This document shows, piece after piece, positions 8,676-61,282 of a stretch of 64,000 nt of DNA. Below the pieces are notes generated by a model that did not search any database, was not told the origin of the DNA, and saw only the letters and a list, made by a program, of their open reading frames with translations. The translations under genes and the position numbers were made by a program. This stretch comes from a virus (Duplodnaviria > Heunggongvirae > Uroviricota > Caudoviricetes), in IMG/VR virus record IMGVR_UViG_2778261161_000002. One strand, given 5' to 3'. The first letter of the stretch is position 1. Each line of letters opens with the position of its first letter.

Positions 8676-8697
8676 TGTTAAGTTAAATTTCTAACAT
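8676..8697. promoter_or_regulatory. TGTTAAG...TTTCTAACA motif (operator-like site A)
   Basis: member of the dispersed TTTCTAACA/TGTTAGAAA family; upstream of the RepL-like gene. Confidence 0.4.
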
Positions 8698-8782
8698 AGT
8701 GTATTTATATACACTGTTGATCCTGGTGGATGGGATCGAGTAGGATCGCGGTCACTGCTCCGGTAGCGACTGCCAAAAAAGC

Positions 8783-8808
8783 AAAAGCCGCTGAGAAGCG
8801 GCTTTTTG
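8783..8808 (+). terminator. rho-independent terminator
   Basis: GCCGCT-GAGA-AGCGGC followed by TTTTT. Confidence 0.65.
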
Positions 8809-8869
8809 GGTGTATAAATCCACTGCCATAGATTTATACGGTAGATAGATTTTTTCACGGAACTATCTG

Positions 8870-9832
8870 GTGAGTATTTTAAATTCAGTTTCAGTAACTT
8901 TCAACACTTCTGAGTATAAAAACAACACTGAATACCACAAAAAAATCAAAGGTCATCAGTTGAGTTTTTTTGCTCGTCATAGCGGTCTTCTTTCCCCTTC
9001 ACATAGCGCCATTATTGCCGAGTTCGCCAACCTGGCAGGGTCTACCGATGAATACATGATCCGTCGCTCATATGCTGATATGTCCGAGATTACAGGACGC
9101 AGCATTTCTACTGTGCGCCGGGCATTTGCTGAAGCGACGAAGTGCGGAATGCTTGTTAAGCAACATCAGGTAGCGAATAACAATGCCCAGGTGTGTAACG
9201 TATATCGGTTTACGACACAATTTCTCCACTTCATTCATGTAGCAATGGAGATAGGGGGTAAGCAGGGCATCAAATTTGCCAACGCCACAAAGCTGGTTAA
9301 GCAATTGATTTCAAAGGTACGTTATTTTTTTGAAACTGGGAACCCCCTGTTCAAATTGAACAAGTCCCCCCATGTTCAAAATGAACAGCCAATAGAAAAT
9401 AAGAGTCACTCTATAGCCAAAAGAAGAGAAAGATCATGCGCGGTTCAGCCAAAGGCTTCACCAGCAGATAGTACTCAAGCGGATAATGGGGGACTGGATA
9501 AAAAAACAGTAATCAGGGAAGAACATACCAACCACTGCCTGGCGGCGGCAAAAGCGAGAGCTGCAAAGCGTCGTTCAGACGAGGGGCACGCAAAACGGCA
9601 GGCTCTGTATCGTACCGCTGAAAAGCTGGCAAAAAAATTTGCATGGATACGTAGTGCCGCTACCGCAGTGAATAAGCCTAAACAATCCAGTGCCCTGGAT
9701 TTCTCAATGGATTATTCTGGCTCCCAGGGGTGTGTAACCATTGGTGAAGCCTTTGACCTGATGAAACAACGTGGCTATCGGTCTGAATTTGACCGGGAGG
9801 ATTGGTCAATCCCTGCGGGATTTAGGGGATGA
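8870..9832 (+). CDS. putative replication / DNA-binding protein with winged-helix region (RepL-like)
   Basis: 320 aa; HTH-like segment ITGRSISTVRRAFAEATKCGMLVK; preceded by operator-like motif and a GATC cluster. Confidence 0.35.
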   Translation: MSILNSVSVTFNTSEYKNNTEYHKKIKGHQLSFFARHSGLLSPSHSAIIAEFANLAGSTDEYMIRRSYADMSEITGRSISTVRRAFAEATKCGMLVKQHQVANNNAQVCNVYRFTTQFLHFIHVAMEIGGKQGIKFANATKLVKQLISKVRYFFETGNPLFKLNKSPHVQNEQPIENKSHSIAKRRERSCAVQPKASPADSTQADNGGLDKKTVIREEHTNHCLAAAKARAAKRRSDEGHAKRQALYRTAEKLAKKFAWIRSAATAVNKPKQSSALDFSMDYSGSQGCVTIGEAFDLMKQRGYRSEFDREDWSIPAGFRG

Positions 9833-9886
9833 CCTGTGTGTCTACAAAGCATCCCAATGATCGGAAAATGCTCGCTCGATGATTTG

Positions 9887-9916
9887 TGTTAGAAAATTAA
9901 TTTGCTGTTTCTAAAT
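9887..9916. promoter_or_regulatory. paired TGTTAGAAAA / TTTCTAAAT motif (operator-like site B)
   Basis: motif family member ahead of the c4/icd/ant module. Confidence 0.4.
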
Positions 9917-10094
9917 CGGAATGTATGATCTGCATCATCGACTGAAGTCATCCATTGCTGAAATTTTTAGTTGATCTTCCATGTTTTCAGGCTTATATTC
10001 ATGCCGTCGTAGCAAATTCTGCGACCAGGTTTGACAGCCTGAATGTTAGTGCGGACAACCGCAGATTTCCGATATTGCGGTATTTTTGTGTCCG

Positions 10095-10215
10095 TAAACC
10101 GCGTTACGCCCGAATTATGGTGGGGCGTGATGGGGAGGCTTCGGCCTGCTGGTCTCACTAACGCCAGTCTGTCAACCCTGTCACGTCCTGCCACCTGTTT
10201 GACAGCGGGTAGCAG
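10095..10215 (+). ncRNA. c4-like antisense RNA region of an immI-type module
   Basis: GGTCTCACTAACGCC (10151-10165) is complementary to the direct repeats CCTGAATGTTAGTGCGG (10037-) and CCTGTTAGTGAGGCC (10224-); the latter overlaps the icd RBS; exact RNA ends unknown. Confidence 0.4.
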
Positions 10216-11892: not shown

Positions 11893-12043
11893 ATTTTTCT
11901 CCCGGTCATGGGTTAATAAGTAGGCAAACTATGGGGAGTATGTGATTTTGACGGTAGTATCGTCCCCCTGAAAATAACATTCTCCATACCCTCTCAACCG
12001 TACCGCATAGCGGAATTTTTTACGGTTTAGAGGGGGAAATCCT

Positions 12044-19750: not shown

Positions 19751-20245
19751 TTGTTGTTATTATTTCGCATATTTACTATCAATAGGTGTGTTAGAAAAAT
19801 AGCGCGAAAGAGAAGGCGTCGCAGTGAATATTCTGAAACATCCCCACATGCCGCAGCTCTTAGAGAACTGGAGAAAAACCCAGATCTAATCAAAAGGAAC
19901 CATGAGCATTACGAGCAGGTTCGCGTCCTGGACTGGTTGTATCGCAATATGCGTTATGTGTATGAGCATACTCACGCCACTCCAAACGGTGGCCTGCGAG
20001 GCATAAGGACGGCAATAAAAATGGTGGCAGAGGGCCAAAAGAAGGGATATCCCGATCTTTCTATAGACCTTGCTTGTGGGGGATACCACGGAATGCGCAT
20101 TGAGATGAAACATGGGAGAAATCGCCTGACTCCCGAACAACTCGTCTGGATGACCCGCCTCACTGAAGCCGGTTACTACTGCTTTGAGGCGCGCAGTGCC
20201 GCTGAAGCCATAAAAGCTATCACGGAGTATGTTTGTCTTGATTAA
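19751..20245 (+). CDS. VRR-NUC domain nuclease (start uncertain, probably near 19937-19949)
   Basis: C-terminal 100 aa carry the VRR-NUC pattern TPNGG...GYPDLSIDL...RIEMKHG...LTPEQLVWM; track start is TTG and an operator-like motif lies inside the 5-prime part. Confidence 0.5.
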   Translation: MLLLFRIFTINRCVRKIARKRRRRSEYSETSPHAAALRELEKNPDLIKRNHEHYEQVRVLDWLYRNMRYVYEHTHATPNGGLRGIRTAIKMVAEGQKKGYPDLSIDLACGGYHGMRIEMKHGRNRLTPEQLVWMTRLTEAGYYCFEARSAAEAIKAITEYVCLD

Positions 20246-20790: not shown

Positions 20791-20831
20791 TTTATTGCAT
20801 CTTCCGATACCGTCATCAAACTAATAAAATA

Positions 20832-20852
20832 TGTTAGAAAACTAATTTAACA
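20832..20852. promoter_or_regulatory. TGTTAGAAAACTAATTTAACA palindromic motif (operator-like site D)
   Basis: motif family member 18 nt before the ATG at 20870. Confidence 0.4.
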
Positions 20853-22078: not shown

Positions 22079-22250
22079 TGTGTTAGAAATCTAAAATCAC
22101 AATTCGAATGTATTGATTGTGAAGATAACTTAACATAGAATTTTCCTTGCTGGTGGGCGGTACCCACGTTTCGCTTGCTGGGCTTGATAGTCACTTATTG
22201 GTTATTGTTCTCCCACCAGCATTTAACAAATTAAAGTGTTAGAAAAATAT
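22079..22250. promoter_or_regulatory. cluster of TGTTAGAAA-type motifs (sites E/F)
   Basis: TGTTAGAAATCTAAAATCACA at 22081 and TGTTAGAAAAA at 22238, plus TTAACATAGAA half-site. Confidence 0.35.
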
Positions 22251-23312
22251 GGTAATACAAGAGCACGCTTTGGCACCGTGCAGGCCAAAGTTCAGCAGGT
22301 TTAGTGCGGAAAGTGGTTTCAGAGAGAGCACTTTGCGGAGTAAACGACAATACATGTTGAGCCACGGAAGGTCTTTTTAAGGTGTTCATTGATGATGGTC
22401 CGGCAGAGAGTAACGGTACATGCTGTATCTAATCATCAATGCACATCTTCAACATTAAGGAGGCATAGGGATTTTTGTGGCGGTTACCTTTTGCCCTGAG
22501 TCTCCTTAATGTTGCGGTAATGCACCTATGCGGATGTGGCCTTGCATTGTGTCTTGAAAGAATGGGGTAAGGCCGGGGATATCCCCAGGGGGAGGCACCC
22601 CCGCTGCAACGAACAGCCACAGACGGCAGTCGAGTGATGGAAACGTGTAAAGACTTTAAACCTCGTTACGGCTGGCGTGGCAAACGCGACAACCGAGACA
22701 GAGCGGTGACGGGCGGAGAGAGTGCCGCATCAAGAAAGAAGCCGACTTGTGATCCCTTTCTGCGGGCATTTGAAAGTGAATCCAGCTCAGGCAGTCGGCT
22801 TCTTTCTTGTGTGAGATGTAGCGTATTTGCCCATCTTCGGGTGGGCTTTTTTAGGGTTTTCGTCATGGTTAGCGACTTTGCGGCGGTTTAGAAACCGACC
22901 ATTAAAGTAAATGCAAACGATGATCTGATGATGGTAGCGGCCTAAGAAGCCTGACGCCACGGGGTATGAGTCGTCCCCCGTCAAAAAATCGACCGCAGAG
23001 TGTCCCCGTCTGTGTATTAGGGAACGGGGAGGCATAACAGGCAAGGGCGCTGGTGTGATTAACCAGATGAATGAGAAGGGTCAGGTCTTTCTGGTCAGCG
23101 CCCTTACCTGTTACGTCCCTCCAGCGTAACAGCCATTGCTTGATGGCACCCTGGGAGAATTTCTTGTAACGGGTAAATCCCGTCATGCTGAAGGCGCTAA
23201 TCACGCTGGAAGCCAGGGTTATGCATCCCCTGTTACCGAATTGCAGCCAGGGCGCGATGCGCCGAAAAGCATACGGAGGTGGAAGCCCTCGCCGGAGACG
23301 TACCCGGCAAGT

Positions 23313-23389
23313 GATGGTGTAGCTCAGTAGGATAGAGCAGCAGCCTTCTAAGCTGTCGGTCGGTGGTTCGAATCCATCCACCATCGCCA
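23313..23389 (+). tRNA. tRNA-Arg (anticodon UCU)
   Basis: hand-folded cloverleaf: 7-bp acceptor GATGGTG/CACCATC, anticodon loop CTTCTAA, T-loop TTCGAAT, encoded CCA; resembles E. coli argU. Confidence 0.85.
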
Positions 23390-23391
23390 AT

Positions 23392-23464
23392 GCCGGTTTA
23401 GCTCAGTTGGTAGAGCGCCTGCCTTGTAAGCAGGATGTCAGCGGTTCGAGTCCGTTAACCGGCA
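23392..23464 (+). tRNA. tRNA-Thr (anticodon UGU)
   Basis: acceptor GCCGGTT/AACCGGC, anticodon loop CTTGTAA, T-loop TTCGAGT. Confidence 0.85.
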
Positions 23465-23476
23465 CCGACACAACAG

Positions 23477-23550
23477 GTAAGGGTATTTTGCGACGTCGGA
23501 GATCGCCGTGCTTGGCAGAGGGTTCGAATCCCTACGAAGTACCCTTACCG
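23477..23550 (+). other. tRNA-like remnant (non-canonical)
   Basis: GGTTCGAATCC T-loop motif inside a 10-bp stem GGTAAGGGTA/TACCCTTACC; no canonical cloverleaf. Confidence 0.3.
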
Positions 23551-23921
23551 TTGTGATGAAGTGCAGCTCTTTGAAGCAACCAGAAGATAAGCATCTGGCT
23601 TCACAACATAAACCGCATGAACGACCAATAAACGGTAGTCCGTATGGAGAACACCCCGTTGAGGAAGAGGCCTGGCCGGAACCGTAACCGGCACTACAAC
23701 GTTGAGAACACTGGCGTAACGGGGTCATATCCCAATCTATGAATAAATGTTGCGTTGCAGCGTGACAACCAGTGTTCTCAACATTGTGGTGAATGCGCAG
23801 GCTGATGCGCGAAAGACATTGCAGCTATTGCGGAAAAGAGCTGTTCGGCGGGGCAATTAAACGCCCGTGAGAGTCTGAAATAACCGCAAGCCGGAGATCA
23901 GCACCGGTCGCCACAATCAGC

Positions 23922-24008
23922 GGAGAGTAGGGGGCATGGTGCTCAAGCGGTCTTGAAAACCGTCCCATTGCGCAAGCGATGATGGTTCGATTCCATTACT
24001 CTCCGCCA
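23922..24008 (+). tRNA. tRNA-Ser (anticodon UGA), type II with long variable arm
   Basis: acceptor GGAGAGT/ACTCTCC, anticodon arm GGTCTTGAAAACC as in E. coli serT, T-loop TTCGATT, CCA encoded; D-arm atypical. Confidence 0.55.
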
Positions 24009-24168
24009 TCGCAACGTTAAGAGTATTTGGCTAATTAAGCGAATGCCGGAAGCAGAACCGGATCATCAAATGCGTACAGGCGTCATCGCCGCCCAGCCAG
24101 CCAAGTGCTCTTACCATTGCGGTGAATGCGGCTAAGCGCACGCGGAACAGTTAAAACAATCCTCCTTA

Positions 24169-24492
24169 GTGGTTAAGTCAAACATCCCGGCGTTAATTGT
24201 TAACTGGTTAACGTCACCTGGAGGCACCAGGCACCGCAATCTAATAAAGTTTCAAGCAATGGGGTTTTTGTTGTCAGACTTCAGATATAGATGGTTGTGG
24301 AAGGAGAGCCTGTACATAGTGCAGTTATTTCTTCCGCTATTTGTCTGCTTTGTCATGCTTCCTGAGCTGAAATACGCAATTTCAGACACTTTAAGCACTA
24401 TCGTTACTTTTGTGTTTTATCTTTACTTTGATTACTTATTGAGCACTAAAATCAATGAATTATCCGAGGAAATGCAAGGTGGCTGTAAGTGA
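24169..24492 (+). CDS. small hydrophobic protein in tRNA island (start uncertain, possibly 24259)
   Basis: AT-rich ORF with two hydrophobic helices. Confidence 0.3.
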   Translation: MVKSNIPALIVNWLTSPGGTRHRNLIKFQAMGFLLSDFRYRWLWKESLYIVQLFLPLFVCFVMLPELKYAISDTLSTIVTFVFYLYFDYLLSTKINELSEEMQGGCK

Positions 24493-24620
24493 TGGATTTT
24501 TGGGCGTTTGCCGATAAGAACCCTGGTTGGACATTTTTATTTTTGCTGGTGGTTGCATATGGGGTCGAGCAAGCGGCTAAAGCCTTACGCGGTTCTGGCA
24601 AAAAGCGTAAGCGGAATTAA
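24492..24620 (+). CDS. 42-aa membrane peptide with basic tail
   Basis: MDFWAFADKNPGWTFLFLLVVAYGVEQAAKALRGSGKKRKRN; TGATG overlap with upstream ORF; ends 10 nt before tRNA-Ile. Confidence 0.3.
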   Translation: MDFWAFADKNPGWTFLFLLVVAYGVEQAAKALRGSGKKRKRN

Positions 24621-24629
24621 CAGTAATCT

Positions 24630-24705
24630 GGCCCTTTAGCTCAGTGGTTAGAGCAGGCGACTCATAATCGCACGGTCACCGGTTCAAATCCGGTAGGGGC
24701 CACCA
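24630..24705 (+). tRNA. tRNA-Ile2 (anticodon CAU, ileX-like)
   Basis: near-identical to E. coli ileX over the D and anticodon arms; encoded CCA. Confidence 0.8.
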
Positions 24706-24759: not shown

Positions 24760-24779
24760 TGTTAGGTACCTTACTAACA
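24760..24779. promoter_or_regulatory. TGTTAGG...CTAACA palindromic motif (operator-like site G)
   Basis: TGTTAGGTACCTTACTAACA upstream of 25160 gene. Confidence 0.35.
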
Positions 24780-25735: not shown

Positions 25736-26127
25736 TGTACGGGACTACCAAATTAAGCACTCAACAGGCCACCAATATGGAGTGGTCTATCGCTAACTGT
25801 AAGATCGTGTCATGCAATGTCACGCGTACTGATGTGGGCCATAAAAGCACTATAACAGGCTATCTAGTAATGACCACCAGGGGGATGAGGGTTAGATTTC
25901 GCTGGAAAGCAGAGCAAGTAACGCCATTCAGAGAGCCATCAATGCCGCTGCAGGTTGAGCAGGATTATCTATGTTTACCAGAAATAGATGGAGGAATGCT
26001 GGTGGAGTCTGATGGTAGTAAGGCTGATTTTGAAGCCAATTTGAAGCTGGCACAGGCCGTAATCAATAGTTATCGCGGAAAGTGGATCGCAAAAGTGAAA
26101 CATGTTGTTCGTTTGTCTCGCTGGTAG
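25735..26127 (+). CDS. hypothetical protein
   Basis: 130 aa, ATGA overlap with upstream gene. Confidence 0.45.
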   Translation: MYGTTKLSTQQATNMEWSIANCKIVSCNVTRTDVGHKSTITGYLVMTTRGMRVRFRWKAEQVTPFREPSMPLQVEQDYLCLPEIDGGMLVESDGSKADFEANLKLAQAVINSYRGKWIAKVKHVVRLSRW

Positions 26128-26128
26128 C

Positions 26129-26162
26129 GTTAGATATTTAATATTAATTTTCTAATATAATC
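26129..26162. promoter_or_regulatory. GTTAGATA ... TTTTCTAATATAAT motif (operator-like site H)
   Basis: motif family member about 75 nt upstream of the lpa-like gene. Confidence 0.4.
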
Positions 26163-29524: not shown

Positions 29525-30562
29525 TTACCAGAGCTTCGCGGCGTACTGCGTTTGGGGGAATGTGTATCCGTAACGTTCTTCGATTGCTTTGCCGTATTTT
29601 TTACGAGCTTCATTCAGTTTAATGCCGGTCAGGTCGTCTCCAGAGGCCATCATTACGTCTAACAATTCCAGATCCATTTTATCCAGCCTTGCCATTGCTT
29701 CACGTGATGTACGTATCTTACGTTCAATGATATGGCGAATAGCCGGATCGGCATCCTCCAGCATCTTAGCGGATTTCTGCTTAAGGCTTTCATTGCGAAT
29801 ATCGATGTTCCTTAAGATGTACGACTTCGCAACGTAGCTTGGCTGGTGTTTTTCCAGGTCACGAACACGATATAAGTTAAAATCGCCGAGAAGGCTGCAA
29901 GGTACCGATTCGACGCCAGAATAAATTGTAATGCTCCGGCGTTCACCAACATTATTGACAACGGGGATCGTTGTCTTCGGTAGTCTTGCGAAAACCAATG
30001 CGCCATGTGCGCCAACTCTAAAGCGAGAAAGGGCATTGCTGCCTTCGATGTTTGTTGTCAGCACAACATCTGTATATGCCTCTTTACGCGCCCGGTAGAT
30101 CTCGCCTTCAGGCTCAGCTTCAAAGAAGCGCTGTTCTTCTTCAAGAGCACCTACGATTTGAGAAAAAACCCTATTTTTCAGGCTTTTCTTTATGATTTTG
30201 TCGTATTTTTTTAGCAATTGTTCACGTGTAAATGTACGTGTTGTTGTAGCGCTTTGCACAACGACATGCGTGCTTTGATTGGTGTCCTCAATGATGAATG
30301 GGATCGGAGAATATACAGACTCAACAATGTTCGACGCTTTGCCGTCGGCATCGCGGCACATGTCAACGAAGGCTTTCCATTCAGCAAGACATTTTTCAGC
30401 TTCTTCTAATATGTTTTGGTCATGCGTTAATGCAACATGGCGGAATTCCTCGCCAGCATAACTGGTATCATGGAAAACAGAGTTTGCGACCACCAGCTCT
30501 TTCCACCGTTCAGCGGTTTGCAGGAACCGTTTGTACTCTTTCTCGATCGACTTCTTACTCAT
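29525..30562 (-). CDS. hypothetical protein at immunity-region position
   Basis: 345 aa, transcribed from the rox side toward pacB; operator-like motif at its 5-prime end; no recognisable domain. Confidence 0.45.
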   Translation of the reverse strand: MSKKSIEKEYKRFLQTAERWKELVVANSVFHDTSYAGEEFRHVALTHDQNILEEAEKCLAEWKAFVDMCRDADGKASNIVESVYSPIPFIIEDTNQSTHVVVQSATTTRTFTREQLLKKYDKIIKKSLKNRVFSQIVGALEEEQRFFEAEPEGEIYRARKEAYTDVVLTTNIEGSNALSRFRVGAHGALVFARLPKTTIPVVNNVGERRSITIYSGVESVPCSLLGDFNLYRVRDLEKHQPSYVAKSYILRNIDIRNESLKQKSAKMLEDADPAIRHIIERKIRTSREAMARLDKMDLELLDVMMASGDDLTGIKLNEARKKYGKAIEERYGYTFPQTQYAAKLW

Positions 30563-30577
30563 TATTCCTACTCGATT

Positions 30578-30598
30578 TAGTTTTCTAACATAAAATTA
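30578..30598. promoter_or_regulatory. TTTTCTAACATAAAAT motif (operator-like site I)
   Basis: reads TGTTAGAAAACTAA on the minus strand about 20 nt before the 29525..30562 start; TTTTAGAAAA at 30664. Confidence 0.4.
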
Positions 30599-30956: not shown

Positions 30957-31985
30957 ATGAGTGAATTAATTATCTCTGGCAGTTCCGGTGGTTTTCTGCG
31001 CAACATTGGCAAAGAGTACCAGGAAGCCGCAGAAAACTTTATGCGGTTCATGAATGACCAGGGGGCTTATGCGCCGAATACTCTGCGCGACCTCCGGTTG
31101 GTGTTTCATTCCTGGGCGCGCTGGTGTCACGCTCGCCAGCTTGCCTGGTTTCCGATCTCACCAGAAATGGCCCGCGAGTATTTTCTTCAGCTGCATGATG
31201 CCGATCTGGCTTCGACCACCATTGATAAGCACTACGCCATGCTGAACATGCTGCTTTCGCATTGTGGCCTTCCGCCACTTTCGGATGATAAAAGTGTTTC
31301 TCTGGCTATGCGGCGCATCCGGCGCGAAGCGGCAACTGAAAAAGGCGAACGAACAGGCCAGGCTATACCGCTTCGGTGGGACGATCTGAAACTGCTCGAC
31401 GTCCTGTTGTCCAGGTCAGAACGGCTGGTGGACCTGCGCAACCTGGCTTTTCTCTTTGTTGCATACAATACGCTGATGCGTATGTCGGAAATATCGCGTA
31501 TTCGTGTAGGTGATCTGGACCAAACAGGTGACACTGTCACGCTACATATTTCACACACGAAGACAATAACGACCGCCGCCGGGCTTGATAAGGTGCTTTC
31601 CCGTCGCACTACCGCTGTGCTGAATGACTGGCTGGATGTTTCCGGGCTTCGCGAGCATCCTGACGCTGTGCTGTTCCCGCCGATACACCGTAGCAATAAG
31701 GCCAGGATCACGATAACGCCCCTTACTGCACCTGCAATGGAGAAAATATTCAGCGACGCCTGGGTGTTGCTGAATAAAAGAGATGCTACGCCAAACAAAG
31801 GAAGATACCGGACGTGGACCGGGCATAGTGCACGCGTCGGGGCCGCTATTGATATGGCTGAAAAGCAGGTGTCTATGGTGGAGATCATGCAGGAAGGAAC
31901 CTGGAAGAAACCGGAAACACTTATGCGGTATCTTCGCCGTGGCGGCGTGTCTGTGGGGGCTAATAGCCGCCTGATGGATTTGTAA
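30957..31985 (+). CDS. dre: Cre-family tyrosine recombinase (Dre-like)
   Basis: 342 aa; colinear with P1 Cre (WFP..PE, NLAFL..AYNTL.R..EI.RIRV.D, HSARVGAA.DMA); rox site 150 bp upstream. Confidence 0.9.
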   Translation: MSELIISGSSGGFLRNIGKEYQEAAENFMRFMNDQGAYAPNTLRDLRLVFHSWARWCHARQLAWFPISPEMAREYFLQLHDADLASTTIDKHYAMLNMLLSHCGLPPLSDDKSVSLAMRRIRREAATEKGERTGQAIPLRWDDLKLLDVLLSRSERLVDLRNLAFLFVAYNTLMRMSEISRIRVGDLDQTGDTVTLHISHTKTITTAAGLDKVLSRRTTAVLNDWLDVSGLREHPDAVLFPPIHRSNKARITITPLTAPAMEKIFSDAWVLLNKRDATPNKGRYRTWTGHSARVGAAIDMAEKQVSMVEIMQEGTWKKPETLMRYLRRGGVSVGANSRLMDL

Positions 31986-31989
31986 ATTA

Positions 31990-32020
31990 AATTTCTAACA
32001 CATCTTTTTAGATTAACATC
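31990..32020. promoter_or_regulatory. TTTCTAACA ... TTAACAT motif (operator-like site J)
   Basis: motif family member before the 32059..35983 operon. Confidence 0.4.
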
Positions 32021-41113: not shown

Positions 41114-41586
41114 TCTCCTTTGATGCGAATGCCAGCGGCGCGTGGCACATTAACTTCCACGATGCGCACTGTTGGTTTGTACATCTCAATTGCTGTCAGC
41201 CAGTCAGTTCCTGTCATGCGCTTTTCTGCATCGCCATTAGTCCACTGAACTGGTACACCAATAGCCTTCATCGCGATTTCTATTTCCCCGGCAATGGCGC
41301 TTTTTCCGCAACCAGTAAAACCAGATACAACGACAAGAACTTCGCCTTTTGCTGGTTTTATTTCCCGCGCCTCCACCTCTGCAATTCGGCACATAGCATC
41401 GATATTTGTGTCTTCCTGGCGTTTAACTTCATCCAATAATGCCAACGCGATATCTGGCGAAAAGTGCTTCATAAAATCGTTAAGCGCATTAATTCGCTGA
41501 TCGAAAGGCATTACAGGCGCTTCACCAGCAATTTTTGTTTTTTCAGCAATTTCACGAAGCTTTTGATAGTCAATTTTGTTTGTCAT
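41110..41586 (-). CDS. P-loop containing small phage protein
   Basis: 158 aa; Walker-A-like SGFTGCGKS; C-terminus GIRIKGE. Confidence 0.35.
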   Translation of the reverse strand: MTNKIDYQKLREIAEKTKIAGEAPVMPFDQRINALNDFMKHFSPDIALALLDEVKRQEDTNIDAMCRIAEVEAREIKPAKGEVLVVVSGFTGCGKSAIAGEIEIAMKAIGVPVQWTNGDAEKRMTGTDWLTAIEMYKPTVRIVEVNVPRAAGIRIKGE

Positions 41587-42461
41587 GCCACTACCTCTTC
41601 GAATTTCAACTCCAATTGGTCACCCCAGATTTCACATGATTCGGAACACGAACCAGTATCAAACCGCTTGGCCTGCACCATCGCCTGATACAAATTTCTG
41701 TAGTCGCTGTCGGCATACATTCTGGCAATCCCGTCAAGCGTCAGGTGACCACGGTACATAACGTCTTTACCTGTTCTGCGATGACCATCCCTGACGTGTT
41801 TGCCTGTAACCAGTTCATTAAAAACCCGCATCAGACCTGGTTCGTCTTTACATGCAAGCCCCAGCTTTTGCGTTGACTTTTTGATGCAAAAAACACAGTT
41901 CCCGAGGTGCTCCGGGATTTGCAAATCAAAAGGTTGTTTTCGCCACCACCGGATAACATCCGACTTATCAAAATCTGACAGCTCGGCAAGATACCGGACG
42001 CCCGGTTTCGGTTTCAGCCTACGGGGTTCGTCCGCACGAATACCCAGCCATGTGATGTAATTCCCTCGCCCAAAATGGTCATCGCAATATTTCGTGAAAG
42101 GGGTGAGTTTTAGCCTGTCAGTACAGAACGCGCCGCCGATGTATGGCGTACCGTACTTTTTAACCATGTCCATAAACGGTTTAAGCACCGGCATTCGCGT
42201 CTGAATATCCTTTGGTTCCCATTCCGTATAACCATTTGGCTGCCCAAGTTCTGGATTTATATCGACCTGCAACACCGTTAGCGGTACATTCCAGAACTTC
42301 ACAACCTCACGAATAAAGCGATACGTCAGAGGATGTTCACAGCCGGTATCCATAAAAATGAAATGGACGCTAGCGCCAGCTTTTCGCTGTGCTTCCATCA
42401 GATGAACGAGATAAGCCGATGTTCGTCCACCTGAAAAGCTGACGACTTGATGCATACTCAC
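41583..42461 (-). CDS. PAPS reductase-family ATP pyrophosphatase-like protein
   Basis: 292 aa; SFSGGRTS PP-loop motif. Confidence 0.65.
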   Translation of the reverse strand: MSMHQVVSFSGGRTSAYLVHLMEAQRKAGASVHFIFMDTGCEHPLTYRFIREVVKFWNVPLTVLQVDINPELGQPNGYTEWEPKDIQTRMPVLKPFMDMVKKYGTPYIGGAFCTDRLKLTPFTKYCDDHFGRGNYITWLGIRADEPRRLKPKPGVRYLAELSDFDKSDVIRWWRKQPFDLQIPEHLGNCVFCIKKSTQKLGLACKDEPGLMRVFNELVTGKHVRDGHRRTGKDVMYRGHLTLDGIARMYADSDYRNLYQAMVQAKRFDTGSCSESCEIWGDQLELKFEEVVA

Positions 42462-42464
42462 GGT

Positions 42465-43157
42465 TTATTCCTGAACGCGCTTAAACTCGATTACCCATAC
42501 CCACGGGTTAGATAGCCAGTTATCCTGCCCGTAAATACTGCGCCAGATATCACCAAAACCAACGCGATAAACAGCTTCCGGCGGCGTAATTTTGTACATC
42601 GCCGGAGATGCGCCTTCTGCTTTAGCATCTGCCTCGCTCATATCACGCAGCCGTTCCACACGCACGTCGGTAATTTCCAGCAAAATGCGCGATGCCCAGC
42701 GCGGCATGTGAATTGATGGACGCCACCCGCCATCAAATTTTTCATTCACAGTGTGAGGTTTCCAGTCGGCATCATCGGGTATCGACCACAAGCCGTAATC
42801 ACCCGGCTTTTGCTCACAACTGGCCCGATAAATCCTTGCTGCGTTCTTCTCATCGCCACGACAAAGGTTGTCGTTCCAGTCCACACTGCAACCATCCTCA
42901 TTGCCTAATATCGCCCACGCCTCACGGACCCATATGCGATCACCAACGTTACCGAACGGGCATAAACCATGTTCAGGTGCATCCATAACGTGGGTATAGA
43001 CACCATTGCGTTTCTTGGTCGGTTTACGGATAACCAGGCAGTTATCGGCCCTGACATTTTTTACAGGTCGGCGAGTCTGCGTCTTCCTTCCTTCGAGGAT
43101 GGCCCTGACCATCTCATCGTTAAAAATCATCCCGCGTTCTTTCATTTTTTGATCCAC
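42465..43157 (-). CDS. ASCH/PUA-like domain protein
   Basis: 230 aa; FNDEMVRAILEGRKTQTRRP N-terminus. Confidence 0.4.
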   Translation of the reverse strand: MDQKMKERGMIFNDEMVRAILEGRKTQTRRPVKNVRADNCLVIRKPTKKRNGVYTHVMDAPEHGLCPFGNVGDRIWVREAWAILGNEDGCSVDWNDNLCRGDEKNAARIYRASCEQKPGDYGLWSIPDDADWKPHTVNEKFDGGWRPSIHMPRWASRILLEITDVRVERLRDMSEADAKAEGASPAMYKITPPEAVYRVGFGDIWRSIYGQDNWLSNPWVWVIEFKRVQE

Positions 43158-43161
43158 CTCA

Positions 43162-44157: not shown

Positions 44158-44199
44158 AATGCATACCGACTCTGTTTTGTTCCGAGCGGTAAAATAATA

Positions 44200-44229
44200 T
44201 GTTAGAAAACTAAAATCAATGTTCTAACG
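44200..44229. promoter_or_regulatory. TGTTAGAAAAC ... TGTTCTAACG motif pair (operator-like site K)
   Basis: motif family member inside the leftward operon. Confidence 0.4.
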
Positions 44230-44255
44230 CATTTTTGAGTGCGTAAGTGATTTGA

Positions 44256-45477: not shown

Positions 45478-45749
45478 TTTGTTTTCTCCTGTCTGAACAT
45501 CACTATCATCAGGTCGCCTTTTGTCGCTATCCTGGCTGTTGTGCCTGGTTCTATGCGGCTAAGTTCAAATGCGTCATAGAACGCTTCTAATGCCTTCTGG
45601 CGTAGTTCCTGTTTGCGCCGTTTTTTCCACTGTTTTAGGAAAATGGAACCCAGCCATCGCCATGTACTGGACATGATGTAAAGCCAACCGAGAAGTGCCA
45701 GTCCGGTATTTAGGGCCGTATCGATCGTTATCGTGGTGTCGATATTCAC
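45474..45749 (-). CDS. small membrane protein
   Basis: 91 aa, one TM helix, basic C-terminus. Confidence 0.35.
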   Translation of the reverse strand: MNIDTTITIDTALNTGLALLGWLYIMSSTWRWLGSIFLKQWKKRRKQELRQKALEAFYDAFELSRIEPGTTARIATKGDLMIVMFRQEKTK

Positions 45750-45994
45750 TGTGGAGGCTCCTGCTTTTCTGCCTTCAATACCATGCGAGAACCATCATCC
45801 AGCTCCCAATTAATTTCACCGCCTTCAGCCATGACTAGATGCCAAACGAGTTGTGCGGCCTCGTTGGTTACATCGCGACCGCGATCATTGCCGACACGAC
45901 GTTTTGTTCCATCCCCTAAGTCACGCATTTTTGCCAACACGATTGTTTTTGATAGCGGTGAAAAACCAAGCTGTAGTCGTGCTGAATTGCTCAC
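45746..45994 (-). CDS. hypothetical protein
   Basis: 82 aa ORF. Confidence 0.35.
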   Translation of the reverse strand: MSNSARLQLGFSPLSKTIVLAKMRDLGDGTKRRVGNDRGRDVTNEAAQLVWHLVMAEGGEINWELDDGSRMVLKAEKQEPPQ

Positions 45995-46755
45995 TGTTTG
46001 CCTCCTTTTCCAAGCTGGGCGGCGATATCTTCGAGAACGCCATCAGAGAATGAGCGGTCAAAATCACCTTCCGGCGCATTAGCCATAAACTCAGTAGAGG
46101 TAAGAATCATCCGGGCAATATCCGCGGCGTTCTTCGCAGTATCATCAATAAAACCAGCTTCCCAGGCAGCCAGCATTCTGTTCGCCACAAAGTAAGCGCC
46201 CTCCTTGCGTGCTTCAGTCTTCACTTCAGCCAGAAAAGCATCGGTGGCTGGTGTTTGCGGCATCCCTCCATCTGTTGCGCAGATATACGCATCAGATATT
46301 TCATCCTGCTCGCCATCAAACACGTAGCAACTCTGTGCGATAAATTTATTCAGCCCTGCATTCTCCGCCGCCAGCGCCGCGCGATTACCCTCCAGCTCTG
46401 CAATGCGCTGTTTTGCGGCATCAAGTTCAATCGATAATTTTTCCAACTGCTCTTTATGCTTCTTGTATTCCTGATATGCGTGCCAGGACTGACCTTTGCG
46501 CACACTATCAGTAATATCAGTAATCTGTTCTGGTGTTAGCGTGGTCAGTGGCTGTGCTGGGAAAATCAGCACTTTCCCGGAATCCCAATCAAAACCAGCG
46601 TGAATTGACTGAACCTCAACTGAGGGTGTTGAACCAATGCTGCCAGGCGAATGAACAACGATCGTTACATCCATATCGCGACGATGGCTGTGGTTATTGG
46701 ACAAAATACGATTCACCAACTCAGAAAATTTGGAGAATTTCATGCGGAGCCTCAA
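45991..46755 (-). CDS. early-operon coiled-coil protein (paralogue of 47159..47662)
   Basis: 254 aa; shares C-terminal domain TDAFLAE...A.R.LAA...GFI. Confidence 0.4.
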   Translation of the reverse strand: MRLRMKFSKFSELVNRILSNNHSHRRDMDVTIVVHSPGSIGSTPSVEVQSIHAGFDWDSGKVLIFPAQPLTTLTPEQITDITDSVRKGQSWHAYQEYKKHKEQLEKLSIELDAAKQRIAELEGNRAALAAENAGLNKFIAQSCYVFDGEQDEISDAYICATDGGMPQTPATDAFLAEVKTEARKEGAYFVANRMLAAWEAGFIDDTAKNAADIARMILTSTEFMANAPEGDFDRSFSDGVLEDIAAQLGKGGKQ

Positions 46756-47162
46756 TATGCAAAATAGACAGTTGCCACACCGTTATAGTGATCAAACGAT
46801 ACGGCGTTTACTTCATAGCTGGCAGGAAGCTTCGAGCCGAGAACGTATCCGGGCCACGTTTTCCATGGAATTTCTCTACTCTCACTATCCCCATATACCG
46901 TACATCCAAGTGAACCTACAGCCTCGTCATAACGTTTGCCGCATGTTATGAAACCTATATTTTTCTTGCCGGTCTTAATGGCGATTGGGTGAACACTAGC
47001 TGATGCATTGGCAGCACGCTGTGACTGTTGGTTTGCGATATTCGCAGAGTTCGCAGCAGCTACAGCAGCCGTGGTCGCGGCGGTAGATGCCACAATAACT
47101 GCTGAAGCCTGCGCCTGTTGGGTAATGGTCAGCAATGCCGCCACAAAAATCATCCTCTTCAC
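46752..47162 (-). CDS. secreted protein with Ala/Thr-rich N-terminal region
   Basis: 136 aa; signal-peptide-like N-terminus. Confidence 0.4.
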   Translation of the reverse strand: MKRMIFVAALLTITQQAQASAVIVASTAATTAAVAAANSANIANQQSQRAANASASVHPIAIKTGKKNIGFITCGKRYDEAVGSLGCTVYGDSESREIPWKTWPGYVLGSKLPASYEVNAVSFDHYNGVATVYFAY

Positions 47163-47662
47163 TTGTCAGCTCCTTTGCGAATCTGTTCCGCCCATTCTTC
47201 AAGGGATTTCTCCGCATATTCACCGGACAGGCCATCAATCGGGTGCGGTTCATTAGCCAACTCTTCTTTCGCTGACAGAATCATGCGCGTAACGTCGAAA
47301 ACTTCACGTAAAGACTTATTGATAAATCCGTGGTTGAAAGCAGCAGCAAGACGGCTTGCGGTATAGTTAATCCCCTCGTTGCGAGCCTCCGCACGAATTT
47401 CAGCCAGGAAAGCATCGGTGACTGGCATATTTCCTGTTGCCTTCATGGCCTCCAAAATAACCAGAACGCCATCTCTCCCTGCCACCTCGCAGATAACCTC
47501 GGTGTTGTCGCCAACAACATCGCAGAATGCCTGAACTGCTTTACGAGCAAGTGCATTCTCCGCCGCCAGCGCAGCACACGCTTTCTCAAGTCGGGAAATT
47601 TCCGTTACATACTCAGCGTTACGCTCTGCCAGTTGTGCGGGCGTTAAACCTTCAGACTTCAT
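47159..47662 (-). CDS. early-operon coiled-coil protein (paralogue of 45991..46755)
   Basis: 167 aa; shared C-terminal domain. Confidence 0.4.
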   Translation of the reverse strand: MKSEGLTPAQLAERNAEYVTEISRLEKACAALAAENALARKAVQAFCDVVGDNTEVICEVAGRDGVLVILEAMKATGNMPVTDAFLAEIRAEARNEGINYTASRLAAAFNHGFINKSLREVFDVTRMILSAKEELANEPHPIDGLSGEYAEKSLEEWAEQIRKGADK

Positions 47663-48731: not shown

Positions 48732-48770
48732 TGTCCTCCAAACAGTTATCAGGAATGATATTAATGTTTT

Positions 48771-48800
48771 GTGTTAGAAAATCAATTTTGAATATCTAAC
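48771..48800. promoter_or_regulatory. TGTTAGAAAA ... ATATCTAACT motif pair (operator-like site L)
   Basis: in divergent region between ref and the leftward operon. Confidence 0.45.
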
Positions 48801-48849
48801 TGTTTTGATCAATCATAGAAAAATAGCTGAAAAGTAAGAGGCAGCCATC

Positions 48850-49428
48850 ATGCAGAAACAGAGCTATTGGGAGAAACAGAGACAAAAAGCCATGCAAAAA
48901 TTGGCTGACCCAGCCTGGCGAGAGGAACAAAGGGCAAAGCGCCTTCAACAAGCTCAACGCCAGCAGCAGCGAGCGAGAGAAAAAGCCGCATCGCCTGAAT
49001 ATCGGCAAAAGAAAATTGAAAAAGCAAAGCAATATGAACAGCGGAGAAAAGATAAAGCTGTATCCGCTCCGCCCAAAAAAACACGCACGTCACGCGGCCT
49101 GAAGGGCAGATCACTCACAGCCGATGAACGCCGGATACAGACCGCTATCGGTACTCTCCCCTGCATTGCCTGCCATATTCACGGGCAACATAGCCCAGTG
49201 GTATCCCTGCACCATATCTTCGGGAGAACGGCAGAGAACGCACATAAATATGTCCTCCCTTTGTGTAAATGGCACCACCAGTACGCAGCGCCAGCCGAGG
49301 TCCGAGAACAATATCCCTGGCTGGTCCCTGTTCATGCTGATGGAAAAATAGGCGGAAAAGCAGATTTCATACGGCACAATGCCGATGAAATGGCGTTGTA
49401 TCAGATGGCGATTGAATTAATAAATTAG
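48850..49428 (+). CDS. ref: Ref-like HNH endonuclease (recombination enhancement function)
   Basis: 192 aa; basic N-terminus and C-terminal GLKGR...LPCIACHIHG...SLHHI...WHHQ.AAPAEVRE.YPWLVPVHADG matching P1 Ref as recalled. Confidence 0.8.
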   Translation: MQKQSYWEKQRQKAMQKLADPAWREEQRAKRLQQAQRQQQRAREKAASPEYRQKKIEKAKQYEQRRKDKAVSAPPKKTRTSRGLKGRSLTADERRIQTAIGTLPCIACHIHGQHSPVVSLHHIFGRTAENAHKYVLPLCKWHHQYAAPAEVREQYPWLVPVHADGKIGGKADFIRHNADEMALYQMAIELIN

Positions 49429-49446
49429 TTTTCTAACATTTTAAGT
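49427..49446. promoter_or_regulatory. TTTTCTAACATTTTAAG motif (operator-like site M)
   Basis: motif family member just after ref. Confidence 0.35.
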
Positions 49447-49927: not shown

Positions 49928-50094
49928 AATACTGACTGTTGCGCCCTGGCATTATCGTGGGGTATATTTCTACGGCACCTTAGAAAAACGGGTGCCGGGA
50001 TTGGAACCCCGGATAATGCAAAAGGCGACACAGACGCCGAAAGCGTCTTTTCTTGTGTCATGCCATCGCACAGCCATACGTAGCGTTTAGCTCA

Positions 50095-50215
50095 GAGATC
50101 AATGGTAGTGCTGGCTGGGCTGCCGAAAGGCAGGCCGGTTCCCTTTTGCGCCGGTAGTTCCAACCCAGTCAGTGCTACCGCCATTGAGATTGGAACCTCA
50201 CGCGGTAGCTCCTTA
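50095..50215 (+). ncRNA. second c4-like antisense RNA region (distinct specificity)
   Basis: GGTAGTTCCAACC (50152-) complementary to repeated GATTGGAACC elements at 50000 and 50189; same layout as 10030-10240 with different sequence. Confidence 0.35.
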
Positions 50216-53098: not shown

Positions 53099-53393
53099 TT
53101 CATTAACTCCATACTTTACCATCTTAGCCGCGAGCGCGGTCCCTAAAACCATTAACTTCACTGCACCGTTCCTTCATGCAATCAAAATGACTTTTATGTT
53201 ATAAAAATAATCAGCCAAATCAACATGATTTAGGCCAAATTTCTGTCAAAAAATAAAATCCACAAAAAGTGGTTGACACTATTTTGGAAATCACAAACTG
53301 CACATAATCCATCGCGCTAACGGCTCCCGTTGAAGGTTCTTTTGACGATTAACTTTCAGCCGAAGCGCGGTAGGGAGTCATAACGCCAAAGCA

Positions 53394-54233: not shown

Positions 54234-54411
54234 GTCATTCACTCCGTTTAATTTTTAATCTAATGCCAGCAAATGAAGCTGGCCCCCGCATAAAGATTAA
54301 TGAAAGTCACTTGTCACCAGTGAGGGGATCCCTGAACTGGTGGCCTGTCTGTTTCTCGCATTTCACACCCTGCATACAGTTTCCCCCAGGTTATGACTGA
54401 GAGGCTTTGTT

Positions 54412-57879: not shown

Positions 57880-58041
57880 TAGTCATTTGATCCTCCGTGA
57901 TGATTACCGAATGCCATAACTATAGCGCACCGTTGCACTGTGCGCAAGTGCATTTTATGAATTCCCCCTCCTTCATCCAAAATCACAATCTCCCGAAAAT
58001 CTTCCTTTCGATACCTGACAGATCGACCTTTGAGGATGCTT

Positions 58042-58833: not shown

Positions 58834-59597
58834 CTTCAAATAAAACCCTCCTGGCGCGAACAGGTGAATGGCAAACCTCACGCACAGGAAAATTCCAGAC
58901 CACGGGCTTTGAAAGCGTGGATAACGCGTTTGCTACGCTAATCAGCAATATCTTTTCTGATATCTTACTGGTGGCCCCCGCGCCGGAAGAAAAACGCTTT
59001 GCGTCATTCCTGAATCGTCCACCAGCAGAGCGTGTCTATGTGGCCCGTTTCGACAATGCGATCGAGTTTCTTAAAGCAGTTCGTCGCGCAAATGCCGGGC
59101 AAGGGAGAAAACCTGAAAACCAGAACATTAACCGGGATGCTCTCCCCCTGGTCAATATCTCACGCACTATGGATATCAATTATATCAACGATGATCAGCA
59201 GATTGACCGCAAAAAAGTAGCCAGTTTTTGCGAACCGGATACCGGAATGCCTTTAGCAGAACTGGAATACACCCAGGCCATTCTGACGTATGACGTTACG
59301 TTAATGGCAACTGATAAAGCGACCATGAGTCTGATGTGTAATTCGCTGGGCGCACGGCTTCGCCTGATGACAGGTACACAATTTGAAGCAACCACTCACC
59401 TTGTTCGTGTCCCGGTCCCGCTGATTTGCTCGATACAGGATGCCAAAGAAGTCGGATTTACGGATGTTTCGGCACCAATTGGAGAAGAGCGTATTTATGC
59501 CACACAAGCGCCGATAAGTGTGATTGCAGACGTGATCACAGCATGGGAGTTGGACGCAAAACGTATTATTACCGAAACCTCGATATCTATGGGGTGA
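58830..59597 (+). CDS. putative tail/baseplate protein
   Basis: 255 aa; overlapping start/stop. Confidence 0.4.
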   Translation: MTSNKTLLARTGEWQTSRTGKFQTTGFESVDNAFATLISNIFSDILLVAPAPEEKRFASFLNRPPAERVYVARFDNAIEFLKAVRRANAGQGRKPENQNINRDALPLVNISRTMDINYINDDQQIDRKKVASFCEPDTGMPLAELEYTQAILTYDVTLMATDKATMSLMCNSLGARLRLMTGTQFEATTHLVRVPVPLICSIQDAKEVGFTDVSAPIGEERIYATQAPISVIADVITAWELDAKRIITETSISMG

Positions 59598-59600
59598 TAA

Positions 59601-60581
59601 GTGGCCCAGGAGTTACAACAATATTTTCTACAGTCAGTGCTCATTAACGATAACAAAGTGCCACGAGACTGGATTTTTACCGCAGTATATGTAGAAAAAA
59701 CCAGCCTCAAAGCCCCTTTGCTAAAACTGGAAATTCATGACGCTACCGGCACCGTAATTGATGACTGGAAAGCCAAATACGGTGCATCGCTGGTGGCTGA
59801 AATGGGCGATCCAAACGGTAATGTAGGCACTTTTAAAACAGATTTCTTTGTTACGTCTGCAATGCTGGCTGGTGATGTTGTTACCGTTATTGCTGTCAGT
59901 GAAGACGTGCGCAGGTTTAAGATCCCCTCCCCGCGCACAAATTTACATACCAACAAAACACCAGACGCTATATTCAAGGCATATTCCGGCAAGCTTAAAA
60001 TTACCAGCAGCGTGCTAAAACGCGCAGTTACATATCATCTGAATGCTGGTGACAAACCGTCAAAAATGCTTTCGGAGATAGCGCGAGACAAAGGTGCATT
60101 GTGTTGGGTATGTCGGGGGGAATTTAACTTTTACACCCTGGCTGATCTGATGAAGCAAACGCCATCATTTACCTACGAGGGGAATAACCCTAAAGCAGAA
60201 TACACTTTGTCAAAAATGCGCCTACTCCAACAGGAACATGCGTCAACAGCAAAGAATCAATATCGTTTTGTTGGGTATTCCATGACCGATGGCTACGTCG
60301 AATATGGCGATAGCTCACTCCCAGTGCGTTATATATCCGACTCTGATATGGAAACTCTTCGCAATATGCAGCTGTCTCTCGTCCCCAAAATGGATATAGA
60401 AGTCGCAGGCAATCCTGATATAAAACCGGGGATGGTAATAGAGATTATCGTATACCGCTATGACCAGGAAAACCGCATTGATGAATCAATGCCCCGTAAG
60501 CTGATAGTAAAAAATGTTGCGCACTTTGAGGACCGCGTAGGCTACACAACACGAATGATATTGGGAGTGCCGAACAAATGA
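59601..60581 (+). CDS. putative baseplate hub protein
   Basis: 326 aa directly upstream of, and overlapping, the spike gene. Confidence 0.35.
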   Translation: MAQELQQYFLQSVLINDNKVPRDWIFTAVYVEKTSLKAPLLKLEIHDATGTVIDDWKAKYGASLVAEMGDPNGNVGTFKTDFFVTSAMLAGDVVTVIAVSEDVRRFKIPSPRTNLHTNKTPDAIFKAYSGKLKITSSVLKRAVTYHLNAGDKPSKMLSEIARDKGALCWVCRGEFNFYTLADLMKQTPSFTYEGNNPKAEYTLSKMRLLQQEHASTAKNQYRFVGYSMTDGYVEYGDSSLPVRYISDSDMETLRNMQLSLVPKMDIEVAGNPDIKPGMVIEIIVYRYDQENRIDESMPRKLIVKNVAHFEDRVGYTTRMILGVPNK

Positions 60582-61231
60582 AGCGTAGAGCGCAAATTGT
60601 TGGAACTGTGCACCCGGCAGGGCTTATGCGTGCTCAAGTCCGTGTTTTACCTGACTGGAATGGCGTTCCTGATGACGATCTACCCTGGGCGGAATACCAG
60701 TTACCCATCGGGAACGCTTTTGTACCTACAGTCAAAGGTGACCTGGTCTGGGTAGAGTTTCCTTATTTAGATGTTAACGGTCGAATAGACACCAGACGCC
60801 CAATGATAGTTGGTGCCGCTCAGGATGCACCGGGAGGAATTCCAAACGTTGCACCAGAAGCATCTGGCAAAGGCAACGGCTGGACGCCGCCGGAAGTAGA
60901 TGGAGCACCTCCCCGCCCCCAAATCTCAGCAACGAAAGACTTCGTTATTCACCGCAACAATATTCTTGAAGTACGAACTGCTGGTGGCGGCTATGAAATT
61001 GCCAATACGGCAGCTGGCTCAAGGATTGGCATGAATGAGTCCGGGCAGATATATATCATTGGTCCGGCTGATGTAATCGTGAATGCAGGAGGGAGTGTTA
61101 ACGTCAAATCAGCCAACAACATCAATGTTAATGGGGAAAATATAGCTGTCACCGCTAACGGGGACATAGCTTTCAAGGCAGGAGGAACCTTTCAGGCCAC
61201 TGCTGGCAACTTCGATTTCAAGAAAGGATAG
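60578..61231 (+). CDS. baseplate spike protein (gpV-like)
   Basis: 217 aa; N-terminal OB-fold pattern (GDLVWVEF) and Gly-rich beta-helical C-terminus. Confidence 0.55.
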   Translation: MKRRAQIVGTVHPAGLMRAQVRVLPDWNGVPDDDLPWAEYQLPIGNAFVPTVKGDLVWVEFPYLDVNGRIDTRRPMIVGAAQDAPGGIPNVAPEASGKGNGWTPPEVDGAPPRPQISATKDFVIHRNNILEVRTAGGGYEIANTAAGSRIGMNESGQIYIIGPADVIVNAGGSVNVKSANNINVNGENIAVTANGDIAFKAGGTFQATAGNFDFKKG

Positions 61232-61247
61232 AAAATGCACCCATTTA

Positions 61248-61282
61248 TGTTAGATAATTAACATGCATTTTCTAACATAAAT
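61248..61282. promoter_or_regulatory. TGTTAGATAATTAACA palindrome plus TTTTCTAACATAAAT (operator-like site N)
   Basis: motif family member immediately upstream of the rdgC homologue. Confidence 0.45.

Follow-up and report, generated by a model that had tools for sequence, protein, structure and literature searches.

What reads the short motif that lies scattered over IMGVR_UViG_2778261161_000002, a caudoviral DNA of 64,000 nucleotides (the whole stretch is hereafter called the window)? An earlier note on this DNA had listed at least 14 loci with the motif and had read them as the regulon of a repressor, with a role as late-promoter element (Lpa box) as the alternative. Here we show that the motif family, which is built on the 9-mer TTTCTAACA, is genuine, and we propose that its sites are very probably the operators of a prophage repressor of the C1 family that the element itself encodes. 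We favor this prediction because the sites stand at the genes that carry operators in phage P1, have an asymmetric and partly bivalent shape of about 19 bp, are distinct from a separate late motif, and change their word together with the C1 clade.

Over most of its length, the window shows 96-99% identity (about 98% in all) with Escherichia phage D6 (MF356679), a plasmid prophage of 91 kb and distant relative of P1, and runs in reverse relative to that record. The D6 annotation was transferred to the window by tblastn. Two mosaic segments (34853-43160 and 45755-47553) have little or no nucleotide similarity to D6, and the window therefore comes from a D6-like plasmid prophage, not from D6 itself.

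The motif is a dispersed, asymmetric 19-bp site

The 9-mer TTTCTAACA/TGTTAGAAA occurs in 12 exact copies in the window, compared to a mean of 0.62 and a maximum of 3 in 100 dinucleotide-preserving shuffles, none of which reached 12. Exact cores are found at 8688+, 9887-, 19789-, 20832-, 22081-, 22237-, 30582+, 31992+, 44200-, 48772-, 49430+ and 61269+. When one mismatch was allowed, 25 matches were found in the window against 16.8 expected, hence most of these are chance matches. Two one-mismatch cores, at 26149 and 61248, have conserved flanks in the position weight matrix (PWM) scan and were counted as true sites. Placing the 12 exact cores in register revealed conservation from -8 to +10 around the core. 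The site is thus an asymmetric 19-mer, A-a-a-T-T-A-r-T-TTTCTAACA-y-A, with an invariant core (written out in full, AAATTAGTTTTCTAACATA). Scanning the window with the PWM yielded 14 strong copies at 13 loci; true sites scored 20-30, while shuffled sequence did not exceed 19.2. The complete D6 genome holds 15 sites of the family, including an extra one between gene 23 and orf52 in a part that the window does not cover. The dispersed family of the earlier note was thereby borne out at 13 of its 14 loci, with start coordinates off by 0-12 bp. The remaining locus at 24760 (TGTTAGGTACCTTACTAACA) had a PWM score below 8, the wrong flanks and half-sites only 2 bp apart; it was rejected from the family as a short, unrelated palindrome.

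Some sites come as inverted pairs. Such pairs are present at five loci (9887, 26149, 44200, 48772 and 61269), and the partner core, which matches in at least 7 of 9 bases, is always separated from the main core by exactly 12 bp (a distance of 21 bp between the two starts). The background probability of a partner core of this quality is 0.0016 per position. The pair geometry is TGTTAGAAA-N12-TTTCTAACA, so that two 19-mers overlap by 4 bp and span 34 bp in total. Inverted pairs had been described before for this motif and are indeed present, but the variable spacing ascribed to them gave way to a fixed one. The weak partner halves of the window are perfect 9/9 pairs in two relatives (L006 and L007, see below).

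The sites are strongly biased toward intergenic DNA. Twelve of the 13 loci are intergenic, with an intergenic share of the window of only 11.4% (binomial P = 5.6e-11), and an equal abundance inside coding regions, which the earlier note had named as the outcome that would speak against a regulon, was not found. The thirteenth locus (19787) lies within the first 18 codons of pmgM as annotated from a TTG start (19751). The stretch between this start and the site is not conserved in relatives, and past the site there is a GTG (near 19823) that is conserved and has a Shine-Dalgarno sequence; therefore, pmgM is probably annotated from a wrong start and too long. The starts given by the Prokaryotic Genome Annotation Pipeline (PGAP) in relatives lie further downstream still. 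At this locus the core is kept in relatives and the flanks on both sides diverge. Among all 8-mers of the D6 genome, none is more specific to intergenic DNA than TGTTAGAA (11 intergenic copies, 1 coding), and no site occurs in the D6 block of about 31 kb at 22.5-54 kb, which consists mostly of virion and lysis genes.

The sites occupy the positions of P1 C1 operators

P1 C1 is reported to bind dispersed operators, 22 in number, each asymmetric and 17 bp long, with repL and lpa among the genes under its control (PMC8546580). For comparison, we extracted C1 operators and late promoters from the annotated P1 genome record AF234172. The window sites adjoin orthologues of the P1 genes served by OrepL, Oc4, Olpa, Oref, Omat, Odmt, Oban, O26 and OpmgR. 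In P1, Odmt serves uhr-hrdC-dmt, Oban precedes tRNAs, O26 belongs to pmgL-pmgM and OpmgR to pmgR-pmgS; the P1/P7 C1 operators (immC) used for comparison comprise Op2, Op21, Op51, Op53, Op68, Op72, Op82, Op83, Op86, Op88, Op94 and Op99. It had been claimed that the motif stands ahead of early-type genes, and indeed repL, both immI modules, lpa, ref, the dut operon, hrdC/dmt and c1 each have a site.

The gene of 345 amino acids that had been listed among the regulon genes turned out, by tblastn from D6, to be c1, the prophage repressor, and the site before it therefore implies autoregulation. Window C1 shares 21% identity over 268 amino acids with P1 C1 and is syntenic with it, next to pacB and the rox/lox site. 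The immC position is thus occupied by a C1-family repressor gene, which adjoins pacAB and the lox/rox-cre/dre module. Homologues with 44-99% identity carry the precomputed Pfam family PF27008 (Phage_P7_repressor_C1), and searches with window C1 itself against a local Pfam copy, PHROG annotation and PDB sequences returned nothing informative. We take P1 C1 to be 283 amino acids long, which makes window C1 62 amino acids longer.

The likeness to P1/P7 extends to the layout of the system. Both have many dispersed asymmetric sites of 17-19 bp and a homologous repressor at a syntenic position, in both some operators are bivalent with two overlapping inverted copies (Oban-ab in P1), and both share the pentamer TCTAA. 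Other features set the window apart. Its site reads TTAgTTTTCTAACAyA, compared to the P1 consensus ATTGCTCTAATAAATTT; its pairs overlap by 4 bp, whereas the P1 Oban pair overlaps by 6 bp; and it lacks kilA, ssb and ban and has two immI modules. No P1-type operator (ATTGCTCTAATAAATTT) was found in the window within 3 mismatches, and TTTCTAACA does not occur in P1. Consequently, the sites belong to a separate specificity class and not to P1 immC, and the view that they mirror the asymmetric C1 operators with a different sequence held on both counts, since gene positions are equivalent and the consensus is unmatched. How the window and P1 operators should be aligned is ambiguous: a register over TCTAA in the same orientation and one over the AT-rich ...AATTT tail in the opposite orientation both fit the data.

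The N15 repressor CB and lambda-type CI at OL/OR are likewise prophage repressors that silence lytic functions via repeated operators. Lambda-type operators, however, have dyad symmetry and are gathered in one or two control regions, whereas the window has asymmetric sites spread over at least 13 loci in the P1 style. The system would work like the P1 C1 regulon; its architecture agrees and only the sequence identity of the operators does not.

The operator word changes with the C1 clade

C1 homologues are present in 149 plasmid records over a wide range of identity, and nine related elements were compared in all. In three relatives with C1 at 90, 80 and 70% identity (L005, L006 and L007), the exact 9-mer TTTCTAACA is kept at every aligned orthologous slot, while only 49% of the surrounding alignment columns are invariant, conserved coding ends included. 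All relatives whose C1 is 44-100% identical have the site upstream of c1 in an unchanged position. The word also persists in metagenomic contigs whose C1 has 51% and 44% identity, where TTTCTAACA precedes c1 and lpa, follows dre and occurs around pmgS.

Elements with a C1 of about 27-29% identity contain 0-1 copies of TTTCTAACA and other words at the same slots. A Citrobacter element has six copies of ATTCTAAGG, all intergenic, located after pro and dre, upstream of both ref and lpa, at gp5/hrdC and just past pmgS. A Leclercia element has TTCTAAG at the same slots, with one copy 48 bp before c1, and a Pantoea element has seven intergenic and zero coding copies of TTCTAAA. Slots held in these distant elements are those after dre, upstream of c1, upstream of lpa, at pmgS/pmgM, at gp5/hrdC, at ref and after pro; their lpa homologues were confirmed by tblastn. 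All clades have TCTAA in common (P1 GCTCTAAT, D6 TTTCTAACA, Citrobacter ATTCTAAGG, Leclercia TTCTAAG, Pantoea TTCTAAA). As judged from these genomes, the presumed operator word tracks the C1 clade and the slots stay fixed. The specificity appears unusually robust, with a core that is unchanged from 100% to 44% repressor identity and then switches.

Several other observations were made in the relatives. In Leclercia, AGTGATCAC was considered as an operator and rejected, being located in coding DNA and near stbA; these copies are probably partition or Dam-site clusters. Chi sites (GCTGGTGG) are abundant in the Leclercia, Citrobacter and Pantoea plasmids (L009, L010 and L011), with 12-17 copies of Chi-containing 9-mers in 30-40 kb. 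Plasmid pK91 of Salmonella Typhi (L008, NZ_CP029871) carries a D6-like fragment inside a conjugative IncFIB resistance plasmid. This fragment comprises dre, c1 (68% identity), the dut operon and a truncated terminase, and both operator sites flanking dre are kept.

A separate motif probably fills the late-promoter role

The element encodes a Lpa homologue (PF25716), so that the TTTCTAACA sites might be read by this late activator to turn on late genes. Two of them adjoin morphogenesis-related genes (pmgM and pmgS), and one overlaps a box of the late type (22079/22094). Late promoters of P1 have the form ACAAGTGACTT-N4-TAnnAT with a -22 box AAGTGACTT and are activated by Lpa; window Lpa is only 31% identical to P1 Lpa. 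A search of the window for the P1-type late-promoter pattern gave one good match, gacAAGTGACTTTCATTAATCT at 54294-54312 (-). We therefore compared the k-mers of intergenic and coding DNA with no pattern given beforehand, which revealed AAATCACA (12 intergenic and 5 coding copies in D6). This box occurs at 4475-4482 (+), 5922-5929 (+), 11941-11948 (-), 22094-22101 (+), 53288-53295 (+) and 57980-57987 (+) in the window and at 38128, 45504, 54137 and 54192 in D6 (L001/L004). In the window it precedes prt, ddrB, the lysis hydrolase, mat and gp7, and in D6 also R-S-U, pmgB-sit and gene 23; exactly 7 nt further on there is a -10-like hexamer (TACACT, TATGCT, CATAGT, CATAAT, GAAAAT). AAATCACA-N7-(-10) is hence a candidate D6-type late promoter, with the geometry expected of a Lpa-dependent promoter and a box that differs from that of P1.

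The late-promoter role is thus probably filled by a separate motif that is always directed toward its gene and has a -10-like hexamer at 7 nt. In contrast, the TTTCTAACA sites have mixed orientation, and the next annotated start codon is 6-342 bp away, except for the two sites ahead of the tRNA region, where the distance is about 3 kb. They precede lpa and c1 themselves as well as early functions (repL, ant, ref), are absent from the 31-kb block of D6 with mostly virion and lysis genes, and bear no resemblance to the P1 -22 box AAGTGACTT. Geometry and distribution contradict the late-promoter alternative, and we regard a Lpa box as a highly improbable explanation of TTTCTAACA.

The single P1-style match, a AAGTGACTT-like box at 54294-54312, lies between orf76/77 and gp26, which corresponds to the position of the shared LP26/LPpmgL box in P1.

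Is C1 the protein that binds the sites?

Several observations weigh against C1 as the repressor acting at these sites. In a scan with the strict consensus, no strong sigma-70 promoter overlapped the sites; only relaxed matches (8-9/12) overlap about five of them. These matches are found at the sites of c4-1, pdcB, orf88, ref, lpa and hrdC, and at orf88 and pdcB a relaxed TTGATT -35 lies inside the site. Furthermore, some sites lie 6-11 bp before start codons (pmgS, c1, hrdC) or inside operons (pmgR/pmgS, ppp/pdcB). An AlphaFold model of C1, made from nine input sequences, matches generic helical bundles only and has no recognisable DNA-binding fold (predicted local distance difference test, pLDDT, 79; predicted template modelling score, pTM, 0.46). 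Finally, in the distant elements all proteins have diverged further, and the covariation therefore does not point to C1 specifically.

The last two points equally favor the idea that the sites are regulatory but bound by another protein, either another phage regulator or a host nucleoid or transcription factor, since covariation across elements cannot discriminate among phage proteins. However, in all clades compared, the sites correspond one-to-one to C1 operator loci of P1 that were defined experimentally, and the slot directly before the repressor gene is among them. The word also differs among elements whose enterobacterial hosts are related, so that a conserved host factor is less probable, and to our knowledge the motif is unlike the consensus sequences of DnaA and IHF (integration host factor). 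Binding by a protein other than C1 is therefore judged unlikely. Hardly credible is a reading without function, in which the copies would be left over from a short dispersed repeat or would have arisen by chance or through base composition. The motif is AT-rich and so is intergenic DNA, but 12 copies stand against at most 3 in the shuffles, the core is invariant at orthologous positions where flanks have diverged, the repeat does not extend beyond 19 bp, and P1, with a similar composition, has zero copies.

A model for C1 control

With C1 as the predicted repressor, the system can be pictured by analogy to P1. In a lysogen, C1 would occupy the sites with one molecule per 19-mer and two at paired sites. 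It would silence lytic replication (repL), both antirepressor modules (c4-icd-ant) and lpa, and through lpa every late operon. Silencing would extend to the tRNA region, ref, pdcB, pmgM, pmgS, the dut operon and hrdC with the methylases, and C1 would limit its own synthesis via the site 11 bp before its start codon. Once C1 activity is lost, all repressed functions would be released together, and Lpa would then switch on the AAATCACA-type late promoters.

Sites that lie 6-11 bp before start codons or inside operons fit a roadblock better than classical occlusion. Their positions suggest that repression would act by a block at or after initiation. The pmgR/pmgS, ppp/pdcB and 22079 sites may be intra-operon roadblocks or dual C1/Lpa switches, and not classical promoter operators. 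At 22079-22097 the overlap with a late-type box hints toward dual C1/Lpa control, similar to P1 mat, where Omat is combined with LPmat.

This is no new kind of regulation, but the P1 scheme with another sequence, as expected of a P1 relative. The novel part may be a separate operator specificity (immunity) class within a known system, and the sites themselves may have been described before; full-text literature searches for the motif string and for a D6 operator or C1 repressor returned nothing relevant, and the D6 genome paper was outside their coverage. Plasmid prophages of the D6-like type occur frequently in E. coli, Salmonella and Shigella, and the operator word would define their lysogeny-repressed regulon and predict mutual immunity between elements. 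The most useful by-product is the comparative series of operator words, a natural series for the change of DNA specificity in an unusual repressor family, with one word from 100 to 44% identity and others at about 28%. It is tempting, though at present speculative, to think that C1-family repressors of P1/D6-like phage-plasmids might read a modular operator, in which the common TCTAA is combined with clade-specific flanks that set immunity specificity. If this is true, the DNA could show directly to which immunity group any of these widespread plasmid prophages belongs, among them some with resistance genes.

Individual sites and their surroundings

Coordinates and scores of the sites are compiled in Table 1. 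The repL-upstream site has a one-base variant core in D6 itself (TTGCTAACA).

TABLE 1. The c1 gene and the sites of the TTTCTAACA family in the window (window coordinates; halves of bivalent sites in one row).
Feature	Position	Strand	PWM score	Location and P1 counterpart
repL site	8680..8698	+	27.1	171 bp upstream of repL start codon; OrepL (Op53)
First c4-icd-ant (immI) module site	9885..9903	-	30.0	upstream of module; Oc4 (Op51)
Weak inverted partner of 9885-9903	9900..9918	+	below threshold	core TTTCTAAAT, 7/9; -21 offset
pmgM 5' site	19787..19805	-	21.5	cf. O26 (Op82) upstream of pmgL-pmgM
pmgR/pmgS site	20830..20848	-	30.0	6 bp before annotated pmgS start; cf. OpmgRa/b (Op86)
Post-pmgS site, head of tRNA-rich region	22079..22097	-	26.0	just after pmgS stop
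Second site ahead of tRNA region	22235..22253	-	20.4	core kept in relatives
lpa bivalent site	26126..26159	strong half 26141-26159 (+), weak half 26126-26144 (-)	22.5, 13.6	strong-half core TTTCTAATA; lpa start at 26236; Olpa (Op94)
c1 (prophage repressor, 345 amino acids)	29525..30562	-		100% identical to D6 C1; presumed binder of the sites
c1 site	30574..30592	+	27.0	11 bp upstream of c1 start codon; presumed autoregulatory
Post-dre site	31984..32002	+	28.5	dre end, 56 bp upstream of orf117-orf116-dut-isaA operon; kept in relatives
ppp/pdcB bivalent site	44198..44231	strong half 44198-44216 (-), weak half 44213-44231 (+)	27.4, 13.5	40 bp upstream of pdcB
Divergent ref/orf88 site	48770..48803	strong half 48770-48788 (-), partner 48785-48803 (+)	27.1	partner core TATCTAACT (7/9); Oref
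Second c4-icd-ant module site	49422..49440	+	27.9	overlaps ref stop codon, heads module; position of Omat (overlaps ref end), functionally like Oc4
gp5/hrdC bivalent site	61246..61279	61246-61264 (-) and 61261-61279 (+)	21.3, 22.9	partner core 8/9; 11 bp before hrdC start; Odmt (Op68)

At the first immI module, a candidate promoter (TTGCTG-16-TATGAT, 9902-9929) overlaps the end of the site, the same geometry as in P1, where Oc4 overlaps the -35 of P2c4. Downstream follow an a1b1 target (9993-10045) and the C4 antisense RNA (10113-10198), and the site ahead of the second module is followed by a C4 RNA (50098-50185) and an isrK-like RNA. Taken as a whole, the window holds two complete immI-type modules (9993-10198 and 49975-50185, +), each with a C4 RNA (Rfam RF01695) followed by icd and the antirepressor; the c4-a1b1 target belongs to the first and the isrK-like RNA to the second. 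P1 has only one such module.

The pmgR/pmgS site is kept in relatives. Just past pmgS, the 22079-22097 site overlaps the late-promoter-type box at 22094-22101 by 4 bp, and the two sites ahead of the tRNA region can be compared to the bivalent Oban operator that precedes the tRNA/ban operon of P1. Both halves of the lpa bivalent site are perfect in the relative with a 70%-identical C1; at ppp/pdcB they are perfect in L007, and at ref/orf88 in L006 and L007. A candidate promoter, TTGATT-17-TATTTT, sits over the ppp/pdcB site, which lies in a conserved island between the two mosaic segments. Candidate -35 hexamers of orf88 and ref lie inside or abut the site between these genes.

Upstream of c1 we noticed a AAATCACA box at 30645-30652 (-) without a convincing -10 and a degenerate core, TTTCTAAAA, at 30664-30672 (-), about 100 bp before the c1 start. 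Both may serve as additional, weak elements of control in the c1-rox region. In the direction of dre there is a strong sigma-70 match, TTGGCA-16-TATAAT (30786-30813).

Outside the window, D6 carries six TTGCCCTCA-containing repeats that flank repA (45709-45816 and 46652) and represent plasmid-origin iterons. They had been considered as a further motif family and were set aside as RepA iterons of D6.

The 3-kb stretch at 22.1-25.1 kb contains almost no long open reading frames. ARAGORN and Rfam place four tRNAs at 23313-24705 (+), namely Arg-tct, Thr-tgt, Ser-tga and Met-cat; the window + strand corresponds to the D6 minus strand. The GenBank record MF356679 has three tRNAs annotated on the D6 + strand (D6 7145-7850), one of them called Asn, which looks like a slip of strand and identity. 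The rejected TGTTAGGTACCTTACTAACA element (24760-24779) directly follows tRNA-Met; it is an imperfect short palindrome with a KpnI site and may be a hairpin or terminator.

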